From a phage, in the sequence record PZ452583.1: 64,000 nt of DNA. One strand, given 5' to 3'. The translations under genes were made by a program, and so were the position numbers. Below, one piece after another: positions 23,054 to 25,709 of the stretch. Below the pieces are notes generated by a model. That model did not search any database. It was given only the letters and a program-made list of their open reading frames with translations, and was not told where the DNA came from. Numbering within the stretch: the first letter of the stretch is position 1; each line of letters starts with the position of its first letter.

Positions 23054-23833
23054 TTAATTAAAAATATATACTTCATCAGTTCCATTCTTTTCTTTGGAAT
23101 GATATATGTTAAAGACGTATTTTTTATTAAGATGCTTAACATTATATTTTTTAGACCATTCTTTAAGAAGAGTGTTTTCCTTTCCGTGATGCTCTAAAAC
23201 ATTCGACAGTCCAAATTTTATTCCTCTGTCATTTAAAGAATCTAAAAGATTTAAAAGGTCTTTTTCTTCTTCTTCTGACCAAAATTTATTATAATCAGCA
23301 ACTGTTATAAGATATGGAGGGTCCACATATACAAAATCGCCATCTAGAATTTTGACATCTTTAAAATGCAATGAACTAAAGATTATTTTATCACAATTTT
23401 GTTTAAAGTGATTAAAGCGTTTTTCACTATTTTTGTTTATAGTTCTTTTTCCAAACGGAGTAGTAAAATTTCCTTTATCGTTTATACGAATCATATTACT
23501 AAATCCGTGAAAATGAAGAACATAAAGTAAAAGAGGATCTCTAGTTTTATTATAATCTTCACGTAATTTCAAAAACTCTTCTTTTGATGTTTTTGATAGT
23601 TTGTATTGCTTTATTACTTTTAAAACGTCATCCCATGATACATTAATAAGACGCTTATACATTTCAATAATTGGGGTTTGAATATCATTAGCCAATACAG
23701 GGCCATTGACGTTCAAAGACACTGATAAACCTCCACAAAATAAATCCACGAATCTGTCATATTTTGGAAAGTGAGGCTTAAGTTCAGGTAATAATGATTG
23801 TTTATTACCTGTATACGCGATAGCTCCTAGCAT
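23054..23833 (-). CDS. dam: Dam DNA adenine methyltransferase
   Basis: 259 aa as T4 Dam; DPPY catalytic motif (YVDPPYL); N-terminal SAM-binding region (FVDLFCGG). Confidence 0.9.
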
Positions 23834-24393
23834 TATATTCTCTCATTTATTGCAGCAAAAAATGAATTATACAATTCATCATCATATGTATTTGATAATA
23901 ATACTAACACGTTTTGTGATTTAGCATATTCATTAAACCTTGCTTGGATGGTTGGATTATCAGTAAATGATTCTCTTTTTGTCCATTTATTACGTGGATA
24001 ATATCCGCATGGCAAAAAATCTAATATCATCAATGACACAGGGTTTTCAGTTTTTGTGTATTCTTTTAATTTCTCTTTATCTTCTAAATATATTCCAACC
24101 GAATCAATAGCTGTACCTCCACCAACTTGGTGTTTAATTTCAATTATATGCTTTTTACCGTTGCGAGAAATAACAATATCAAATCTTCTAGTACGCTTCT
24201 TAGTTATAAAATTAGAGCAAAACAAATTATTTGATTTTTCAGTATCATCAATTAAAACCATTTTTTCTTGATAACTAACTGAACAATCAGTGAAATATTC
24301 TTTTACTTTATTAAGTATGAAATTTTCAACTACGGCAGATATTTTATATGAATCTCCGTTTAAAGCCATTTCATGCACAATTTTATTAATCAT
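23833..24393 (-). CDS. hypothetical protein (186 aa) with PD-(D/E)xK-like motif
   Basis: [24 protein letters not shown] fits D-x13-E-x-K; own early promoter and SD GAGGA; stop overlaps dam start. Confidence 0.55.
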
Positions 24394-24418
24394 TATATCA
24401 TCCTCAGCAATTTATTTT

Positions 24419-24448
24419 ATAATACCATAACAAGCTGAGAAAGTAAAC
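24419..24448 (-). promoter_or_regulatory. early promoter for the 186-aa ORF
   Basis: GTTTAC (+24443-24448), 18-nt spacer ending TGG, TATTAT (+24419-24424). Confidence 0.55.
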
Positions 24449-24483
24449 AAATTTATGATAAATATTAATTTAAAGGAGGACAT

Positions 24484-24684
24484 ATGGTACAAAAATTAAT
24501 GGCACTTGTTAATGCCATAAAAGGTAATAAGAAACGTATAGCTTTTACTATTTCTGCTATGGTAGGAATTTTACTCTGGAACTTTATTTTATCACCTGTT
24601 GCAATTGCACATGGTATTAATATTCCAGTAGTTACTCTTGATACATTCGTAGATTTAGCATTTGCTTTAGTTGGGTTAATTTAA
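24484..24684 (+). CDS. small membrane protein (66 aa), plus strand
   Basis: strong SD AAAGGAGGA 4 nt before ATG; hydrophobic segments; convergent with gene 61 (stops overlap); no clear plus-strand promoter found. Confidence 0.45.
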   Translation: MVQKLMALVNAIKGNKKRIAFTISAMVGILLWNFILSPVAIAHGINIPVVTLDTFVDLAFALVGLI

Positions 24685-25709
24685 ATCTTGGCATATTTAG
24701 ATAGCCGCATTTTAGCCATCAACCCCTGTGCAATATTATTTTTCATATATTCCATAATTTGTTCAGGGGTTGCACCTTCCTTTCTAATCATATCATTAAC
24801 ATCTTTTGATTTCCAGGGAGATTTATCCCAAAACATAACCCTTTCTCCTGCATCAACTAATTTAGTCATTCGCTTAATAGTGTCAGGATGACGAGGTTCA
24901 TTATCTAAAACCCACACACGTCTATCTTTAAATGGAACAACTTCTAGGTCTAATTGACCACCCGTAATAGCTATACCATTTTCAATAAAAAGTGAATCTA
25001 TAGGTCCTTCTAGAACATATACATCACCATCTTTAACTCGTTCGACTCCATAGATTTTTGTTGCTTCAGGATAAGCTTTGATGGTGATATATTTTTGGGG
25101 AGCATCTTTCTTTAATGCACGTCCTTGAAAAGACTCAGCTTTTCCATTAGCATTATAAATTGGAATAACAAGACGAGGCTCAGGTATTTCCTTTTTATAT
25201 GTTCCCGGTGCTATGCTATTAACTAATTTAGGCCATTCGGTTGTAAACCAAAGATATTTCCATTTATCCTTTGGAATACAACGAGCTTTTACGTATTTTA
25301 TAATTGGATGGTCTTCCGCCAGTTTATCTAATCTAACACATGACGGAAGAGATTTAATTATTTTCTTTTCAGGTTGTTTAGGAAGTTCTTTAGGTTTTTC
25401 TACTGGACGACTTTTACCTTTTTCTTTTCTTATTTCAAAGATATACTCACGATATAAATCAGGTTCAAACTCCTTTAAATATATTCCGATTGGCGCATGA
25501 TAGTTACAGTTATAACAATGAATATTTCCTTCATTATTATCACCATAATACCATCCACGAGCTTTATTCTGGTCGGTTTTTGAATCTCCGCAAACAGGGC
25601 ATCTAAACCGTAATTTAAAAGTTGAACTATTATTTACTTGTGTGAATTTAGGTAAATGGGCTAATGCACGATACGCAAACTCATTATCAATCCAAGGTAT
25701 TGATGACAT
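24681..25709 (-). CDS. 61: gp61 DNA primase
   Basis: 342 aa as T4 gp61; N-terminal zinc finger CPVCGDS...CYNCNYH. Confidence 0.9.
   Translation of the reverse strand: MSSIPWIDNEFAYRALAHLPKFTQVNNSSTFKLRFRCPVCGDSKTDQNKARGWYYGDNNEGNIHCYNCNYHAPIGIYLKEFEPDLYREYIFEIRKEKGKSRPVEKPKELPKQPEKKIIKSLPSCVRLDKLAEDHPIIKYVKARCIPKDKWKYLWFTTEWPKLVNSIAPGTYKKEIPEPRLVIPIYNANGKAESFQGRALKKDAPQKYITIKAYPEATKIYGVERVKDGDVYVLEGPIDSLFIENGIAITGGQLDLEVVPFKDRRVWVLDNEPRHPDTIKRMTKLVDAGERVMFWDKSPWKSKDVNDMIRKEGATPEQIMEYMKNNIAQGLMAKMRLSKYAKI

Follow-up and report, generated by a model that had tools for sequence, protein, structure and literature searches.

The Dam protein of bacteriophage T4 is among the best-studied DNA methyltransferases and has long been treated as an orphan enzyme. 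To our knowledge, it has no clear biological purpose in a phage that is already shielded by glucosyl-hydroxymethylcytosine (glucosyl-hmC), which raises the important question as to why such phages carry dam at all. A 64,000-nucleotide stretch of sequence record PZ452583.1 (hereafter the window), which is a segment of a Tequatrovirus genome, suggests a possible answer. On its minus strand lie, in order, the gene 56 dCTPase (22475-23008), dam (23054-23833), an open reading frame (ORF) of 186 amino acids that we call ORF186 (23833-24393) and the primase gene 61 (24681-25709), and an ORF of 66 amino acids (ORF66, 24484-24684) occupies the plus strand. A preliminary description of this DNA had proposed that ORF186 is nuclease-like and that, together with ORF66, it could form a restriction-like, exclusion or replication-origin-associated module. 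All features described there for the two ORFs are present in the sequence. The restriction-like part of the proposal is its best reading, given the linkage of ORF186 to Dam reported below, and nothing ties either ORF to a replication origin. We favour, with confidence a little above even, the view that the interval holds two unrelated units, namely a restriction-modification-like cassette made up of ORF186 and Dam, and an independent ORF66. The first of these would be a known type of pair, a restriction-like nuclease with its methylase, in an unusual phage context.

A PD-(D/E)xK protein encoded next to dam

ORF186 and dam are directly joined, the TAA stop codon of the former and the ATG of the latter having one base in common (TAATG, 23835-23831). 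Reading the minus strand upstream of ORF186, a Shine-Dalgarno (SD) sequence, GAGGA (24401-24405), is found 7 nt before the ATG, followed by a promoter-like site of the T4 early type (24448-24419) that consists of GTTTAC at 24448-24443, a spacer of 17-18 nt and TGgTATTAT ending at 24419. This consensus match agrees with the early promoter that had been ascribed to ORF186; identified by a consensus scan only, it would drive both ORF186 and dam, and the record of phage JB75 has a predicted promoter annotated at the same place. Between the window and phage EP01, 18 synonymous and 5 non-synonymous differences separate the two copies of ORF186 (ratio of non-synonymous to synonymous substitution rates, dN/dS, of 0.06) and 10 and 5 those of ORF66 (dN/dS 0.13); among Tequatroviruses the ranges are 0.06-0.10 and 0.1-0.2, respectively. 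Both frames stay open in relatives at only 30-60% protein identity. On these comparisons we regard it as confirmed that ORF186 and ORF66 are real genes under purifying selection, beyond chance ORFs. There is no GATC site within either of them.

The PD-(D/E)xK-like arrangement seen earlier in ORF186 is borne out by modelling. An AlphaFold2 model built with 8 homologues (predicted local distance difference test score, pLDDT, 79; predicted template modelling score, pTM, 0.78) has the canonical alpha-beta-beta-beta-alpha-beta core, with D72 on strand 2, E85 and K87 on strand 3 and E23 in helix 1. The catalytic motif, FD72IVIS...IIE85IK87H, is intact, and in an alignment of nine sequences reaching down to 32% identity E23, D72, E85, K87, H88 and Q89 are invariant, as are G93-T-A-I-D-S98, P118, S120 and D125. 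This invariance speaks for an enzyme that is active and has kept its specificity. Foldseek searches with the model returned PD-(D/E)xK nucleases exclusively, and on the model we consider membership of this superfamily secure and the sub-family not. The weak sequence matches of ORF186 also go exclusively to restriction endonuclease (REase) models, namely Pfam DpnII and BanI and PADLOC REase_II. Four of the nine family members match Pfam DpnII (best E 8.3e-5), and the best match to REase_II, a model of 290 positions, has E 5.3e-6. Homology to a characterised non-nuclease protein of T4 at this locus, which would have spoken for a different function, was not found.

The family is tiny: when 1.84 billion representative proteins were searched exhaustively with a profile, 12 matched, and those of known context are all from T4-like phages. 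Broadening the profile for a second homology search added no relatives, and tblastn against plasmids gave no match. The orthologue in one GenBank record, that of phage Shinka, is already labelled 'putative DpnII restriction endonuclease', and in all other inspected records it is 'hypothetical'; a full-text search of the published literature retrieved no description of ORF186 or of ORF66.

One-way linkage to Dam and decay of the nuclease gene

Is the proximity of ORF186 to dam a peculiarity of this genome or a property of the family? The counts of records given here derive from BLAST and refer to the matches listed, so that they are lower bounds. With the 5' end of dam plus ORF186 as query, at least 181 Tequatrovirus records carry that dam, and ORF186 is joined to it in 147 of the 181 listed; the remaining 34, mostly T4 strains, have the deletion of ORF186 that is found in T4. 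Thus, most of the listed Tequatroviruses with dam couple it to a restriction-like nuclease, and T4 is the exception by deletion. The linkage extends to divergent homologues. Six metagenomic ones, at 63, 59, 56, 49, 33 and 32% identity, each lie immediately upstream of a D12-class methyltransferase gene, with reading frames that overlap by 1-35 nt or abut. In the Klebsiella phage SmallBear_ER8 (Jiaodavirus) the ORF186-Dam pair (42% identity) is located between denB and ndd, and in the metagenomic contig L014 rIIA follows it directly. The same pair is therefore found at three different genome loci and moves as a unit.

The partner methyltransferases are all orthologues of T4 Dam, to which they are 52-70% identical, and K11, S112, R116, P126, R130 and DPPY are invariant in all of them; these residues include ones that we take to be the GATC-contacting residues of the T4 Dam-DNA structures. 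The window's own Dam (259 amino acids, encoded on the minus strand at 23054-23833) is a D12-class, GATC-specific DNA adenine methyltransferase (Pfam PF02086, E 7.9e-51), 97% identical to T4 Dam, and we propose it as the modification half of the cassette.

Linkage runs in one direction. An ORF186 homologue without a Dam orthologue was not seen among the ~155 matches listed and 11 metagenomic contexts, and in at least ~260 further T4-like phages a Dam orthologue is present and no ORF186 relative is detectable by tblastn. The latter include RB43, RB49 and Slopekvirus KP15, for which the neighbourhood of dam was inspected. At the slot between genes 56 and 61, T6 and RB68 have neither gene, and T2 and the window have both. 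Finding the nuclease never without the methylase, and the methylase often on its own, is what a restriction-modification pair would lead one to expect; adjacency and joint inheritance of the two genes on the one hand, and asymmetric loss on the other, are both observed for ORF186 and dam. This suggests, from gene content, a phage-borne cassette of the restriction-modification type with Dam as its methylase.

Decay of the nuclease with retention of the methylase can be followed in close relatives. The interval is 98.6-99.9% identical to that of Serratia phage PhiZZ30 and 98.3% identical to that of T2. Aligning the window with T4 and T2 shows that a stretch of 539 bp (23913-24451) is missing in T4, spanning ORF186 codons 1-160 and the promoter-like site and leaving dam in place. 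The inability of the preliminary description to place either ORF in T4 is in line with this, as all that is left of ORF186 there is its last ~20 codons, and ORF66, which is intact, is unannotated in the RefSeq record. Near the 3' end of ORF186 an A-run is one base shorter in T2 and T4 than in the window (window 23833-23912; L004 3627-3706; L001 2335-2415), and in the 181-residue T2 protein the conserved end of the C-terminal helix, ...FFAAINERI, is replaced by ...FLLQ (...SFLLQ and stop). The T4 remnant shows the same C-terminal reading, so the T4 deletion arose on an already frameshifted allele. Both classical strains may thus carry impaired copies of ORF186, which could explain the absence of a reported nuclease activity. 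In phage vB_EcoM_G29 (L022 1201-1760) a frameshift splits ORF186 into two annotated coding sequences and dam is intact; to judge from its sequence, the nuclease has decayed here a second time, independently, and the methylase has been kept.

Some related arrangements were encountered along the way. At the denB-ndd locus of Klebsiella phage KP179 (L028 292-2592), a different PD-(D/E)xK-like protein of 210 amino acids (DIVASKNGETLVIDVK), with a weak match to Hjc, is encoded by an ORF that overlaps a gene for a second D12 methyltransferase, followed by Dam. This resembles a further cassette of nuclease plus methylase in a T4-like phage. The metagenomic T4-like contig L005 has an extra ORF of 93 amino acids (4010-4291) between its ORF66 and ORF186 homologues; this ORF matches a nucleoside triphosphate pyrophosphohydrolase PHROG (phrog_4856) over the C-terminal half of the latter. 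Finally, homologues of T-even Dam on plasmids of Lactococcus, Staphylococcus and Enterococcus that we inspected (38-43% identity; L023, L025, L026 and L027) are not orphan Dam enzymes; they are methyltransferases of type IIS systems of the AlwI family (GGATC). A DpnII-type enzyme was sought beside the plasmid homologues, and all five neighbourhoods proved to be of the AlwI family or to be without an annotated endonuclease.

What the cassette might do

If the favoured reading is right, ORF186 and dam would be co-transcribed early from the early-type promoter, and their translation would be coupled. DNA that lacks methylation at the adenine of GATC would be cleaved by the nuclease, at that site or close to it, and Dam would protect the phage genome by methylating it. 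With an active nuclease, a virulent phage would here be using a restriction-modification pair, the likely targets being other phages or foreign DNA that share its cell; the victims would be DNA molecules in that cell that are unmethylated, such as those of co-infecting relatives lacking the cassette, of other phages or of plasmids. The purpose of T4 Dam also becomes testable, by comparing the nuclease with and without Dam.

How does the pair compare with known systems? A lytic virus with such an arrangement exists in the chlorella virus PBCV-1, where R.CviAI is a GATC endonuclease blocked by N6-methyladenine (m6A) and M.CviAI is the matching adenine methyltransferase. We set the two systems side by side by description only, and on that footing CviAI may be the closest functional analogue of ORF186-Dam. 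The host of CviAI, however, is eukaryotic and its unmethylated DNA is degraded, whereas T-even hosts are Dam-methylated and T-even DNA contains glucosyl-hmC. With type IIP enzymes of the EcoRI/MunI class (MunI, PDB 1D02), ORF186 has in common the PD-(D/E)xK core with acidic residues and a lysine on beta2/beta3, the adjacent gene for an N6-adenine methyltransferase and a small size (186 versus ~200 amino acids for MunI). Its IEIKHQvGG...GTAIDS also resembles AEAKHQG...GNAIER in the verified EcoRI sequence. The differences are that Foldseek places other PD-(D/E)xK domains higher, that the partner methyltransferase targets GATC and not AATT-containing sites, that the carrier is a virulent phage with hypermodified DNA, and that no sequence relationship to the class is detectable by hhalign or PDB searches. 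As hhalign gave a null result and the resemblance is confined to the local EAKHQG and GNAIER segments, we treat a relationship to EcoRI as no more than a tentative lead. To the DpnII/MboI systems (PF04556 plus DpnM) the cassette is alike in its D12/Dam-class partner with a GATC target and in the weak matches of ORF186 to the catalytic region of DpnII and to PADLOC REase_II, and unlike in that ORF186 is ~100 residues shorter than DpnII-family enzymes and scores under the Pfam gathering cut-off.

Several observations weigh against restriction as the function of ORF186. Its score against Pfam DpnII (15.7 bits, E 0.0099) is below the gathering cut-off of 23 bits, and neither the family consensus nor the three most divergent members match that model; on these grounds we rejected membership of the DpnII family. 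The top Foldseek matches are PD-(D/E)xK domains of non-restriction proteins (VC1899, Card1, Can2 and Bax1), with low template modelling (TM) scores of 0.3-0.47. No sequence relative was found in the PDB with either the ORF186 profile or a core fragment, and hhalign of the family against EcoRI gave nothing (probability 0.2%). The partner methyltransferase is the sole pointer to the presumed GATC specificity of the nuclease. Viable dam-deficient T2 mutants are on record, to which it can be countered that the ORF186 of T2 is the C-terminal frameshift allele. The chemistry of the DNA poses further difficulties. Glucosyl-hmC in T-even DNA blocks 94% of the type II enzymes tested (PMC7653180), and since every T-even GATC carries this blocking modification, protection by Dam might be unnecessary. 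The DNA of enterobacterial hosts is already Dam-methylated and would therefore not be a target of the nuclease. Phage DNA itself is methylated only partially by host Dam and the T4 methylase (PMC7653180). With the host Dam-methylated and the phage carrying glucosyl-hmC, the most coherent target would be unmethylated co-infecting DNA, possibly that of T-even relatives without the cassette.

The fold matches bring to mind a first alternative, in which ORF186 is a PD-(D/E)xK protein of repair, recombination or another non-restriction process, for instance a structure-specific nuclease or a GATC nickase resembling MutH or Vsr, and its adjacency to dam reflects shared descent or regulation. This would suit the ranking of the Foldseek matches and the absence of significant sequence similarity to characterised restriction enzymes. 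Yet the linkage to Dam holds across 32-63% identity, at three loci and with overlapping frames, for which descent alone is hard to invoke, and we consider this alternative improbable.

Much the same standing, perhaps a shade lower, goes to a methylation-dependent, DpnI-like nuclease. Here Dam would write m6A on the cytosine-containing DNA of the host or a competitor, ORF186 would cut it, and glucosyl-hmC would spare the phage, so that the role of the pair would be host-DNA breakdown. Such an enzyme would likewise explain the functional link to Dam, and its setting would be apt: the Jiaodavirus cassette is flanked by denB and ndd, both of them genes for host-DNA shut-off, that of Tequatroviruses adjoins the dCTPase gene 56, and the promoter-like site is of the early type. 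The hosts argue otherwise. All those known are Dam+ Enterobacterales, which would make the phage Dam dispensable and lead one to expect phages with the nuclease only, and the listed matches and metagenomic contexts counted above contain none. Moreover, ORF186, which is modelled as a single 186-residue domain of catalytic type, showed no sign of a winged helix or another m6A-reader domain, and, phage DNA being itself Dam-methylated (PMC7653180), the safety of the phage would hang entirely on hmC.

Equally doubtful is a free-standing, homing-type endonuclease that would cut a long site in relatives without the cassette and spread by recombinational repair, with dam as cargo or hitch-hiker. The cassette is indeed present or absent as a block between the conserved genes 56 and 61, much as the T4 seg and mob genes are optional nuclease genes that lie between conserved T-even genes and vary between close relatives (PMC2988022), and in T4 one of them, SegF, occupies the slot adjacent to the cassette position. 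However, three unrelated loci with different neighbours are a poor fit to one long target, and homing endonucleases need no methylase, whereas ORF186 is paired with one in every context examined and in all records listed. The seg and mob enzymes also have a GIY-YIG or HNH fold as opposed to PD-(D/E)xK, and Pfam, NCBIfam and PHROGs searches of ORF186 found no GIY-YIG, HNH or LAGLIDADG domain.

The restriction-modification-like reading makes a connection to the base composition of the phage conceivable. The window contains 70 GATC sites compared with 206 expected from a Markov estimate, and the 80 minus-strand ORFs contain 59 compared with 160 +/- 8 after synonymous-codon shuffling (ratio 0.37, z = -13). 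GATC is the most depleted of the 8 palindromes of 4 bp assessed by codon shuffling and of the 16 assessed by the Markov estimate; the ratio for GGATC in the window is 0.16. The depletion fits a long-standing selection at this site, and the nuclease behind it could be the phage's or the host's; ORF186, if active, could help to explain the avoidance of GATC in these genomes. A bolder version of the restriction-modification-like reading, which we put forward as a rather unlikely proposition, is that T-even Dam is the protective half of a pair whose nuclease cuts hmC-containing GATC without m6A, and that the cassette serves as a weapon or selfish element against co-infecting phages of the T6/RB68 type, with its own propagation and the approximately threefold scarcity of GATC as consequences.

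ORF66 and the remainder of the window

What, then, is the role of the plus-strand ORF next to the cassette? ORF66 encodes a conserved protein of 66 amino acids, has homologues in at least 699 phage records (tblastn) and, among the families searched, matches only PHROG 2024, of unknown function. It is preceded by a strong SD sequence (AAAGGAGGA, 24472-24480, plus strand), and 19 nt before its ATG lies GATAAATA (24457-24464), a 7/8 match to the T4 late-promoter box TATAAATA. In seven of seven divergent loci a NNTAAATA motif is present 15-22 nt before the ATG, with a perfect TATAAATA in contig L005, and the plus strand of the 64-kb window contains just three copies of ATAAATA. From these motifs, ORF66 is likely to be expressed from a late promoter.

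AlphaFold2 predicts helices at residues 2-12, 16-42 and 52-63. A cluster of lysines and arginines (residues 13-18) is followed by a hydrophobic helix (~19-42) with conserved W-N and P, and the second, C-terminal helix is less hydrophobic. Together these features indicate a small inner-membrane protein. One UniRef entry names a homologue 'Holin'; we discarded this function, as the C-terminus of ORF66 is hydrophobic and has no basic residues where a highly charged C-terminus is expected, and its neighbours are the primase gene and dam or gene 56, not lysis genes.

Gene 61, identified from the ORF list and from its annotation as gene 61 in T2 and T4, converges on ORF66, and the overlap with the gene 61 stop noted previously is real: the palindrome TTAA (24681-24684) provides the stop codons of both genes. 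The same 4-nt overlap exists in seven of seven loci inspected. ORF66 is kept in RB68 and T6 and also has homologues in Mosigvirus OLB35 (~55% identity) and Karamvirus CkP1 (31%), all four being without dam and ORF186, and conversely the ORF186-Dam cassettes of SmallBear_ER8 and L014 have no ORF66 alongside. Judged by this distribution, the ORF66 gene is separate from the cassette and belongs with the 3' end of gene 61, so that its description as a divergent membrane partner of the nuclease does not stand. A single exclusion, abortive or replication-origin-associated module of ORF186 and ORF66, for which their divergent orientation and spacing of ~90 bp in the window would speak, is barely credible in view of the attachment of ORF66 to gene 61 by the stop overlap in all four phages lacking the cassette, the cassettes without ORF66 elsewhere and the different classes of the promoter-like signals, early for ORF186 and late for ORF66.

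The T6 record labels the homologue of ORF66 'Dam.1'. In T4 the gene is intact and encodes 66 amino acids with two differences (NC_000866 17738-17938, plus strand; L004 3739-3939), its SD sequence and GATAAATA motif are identical to those of the window, and it falls within a 309-bp 'intergenic' gap between dam and gene 61. With ORF66 (dam.1), the T4 reference annotation lacks a small membrane protein that is conserved and probably expressed late.

As had been suspected, ORF66 appears to be the sole convincing plus-strand unit: a crude scan for plus-strand ORFs that are 40 amino acids or longer, lie outside minus-strand ORFs and combine an ATG with an SD sequence yields ORF66 alone. A second candidate at 11634-11792, which follows the only TATAAATA on the plus strand, was dropped because it overlaps a convincing minus-strand gene. 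Downstream of gene 61, the consensus scan found a terminator-like hairpin with a T-run on the minus strand (ATGGCATTAACAAGTGCCAT TAATTTTTGT, 24499-24518). It lies inside codons 6-12 of ORF66, and both strands may impose constraints on its sequence. No RNA family and no tRNA emerged when the 64-kb window was scanned with Rfam and for tRNAs. The longest spans without a minus-strand ORF of at least 70 amino acids are at 62227-62925 (699 bp), 43826-44240 (415 bp) and 2700-3082 (383 bp).

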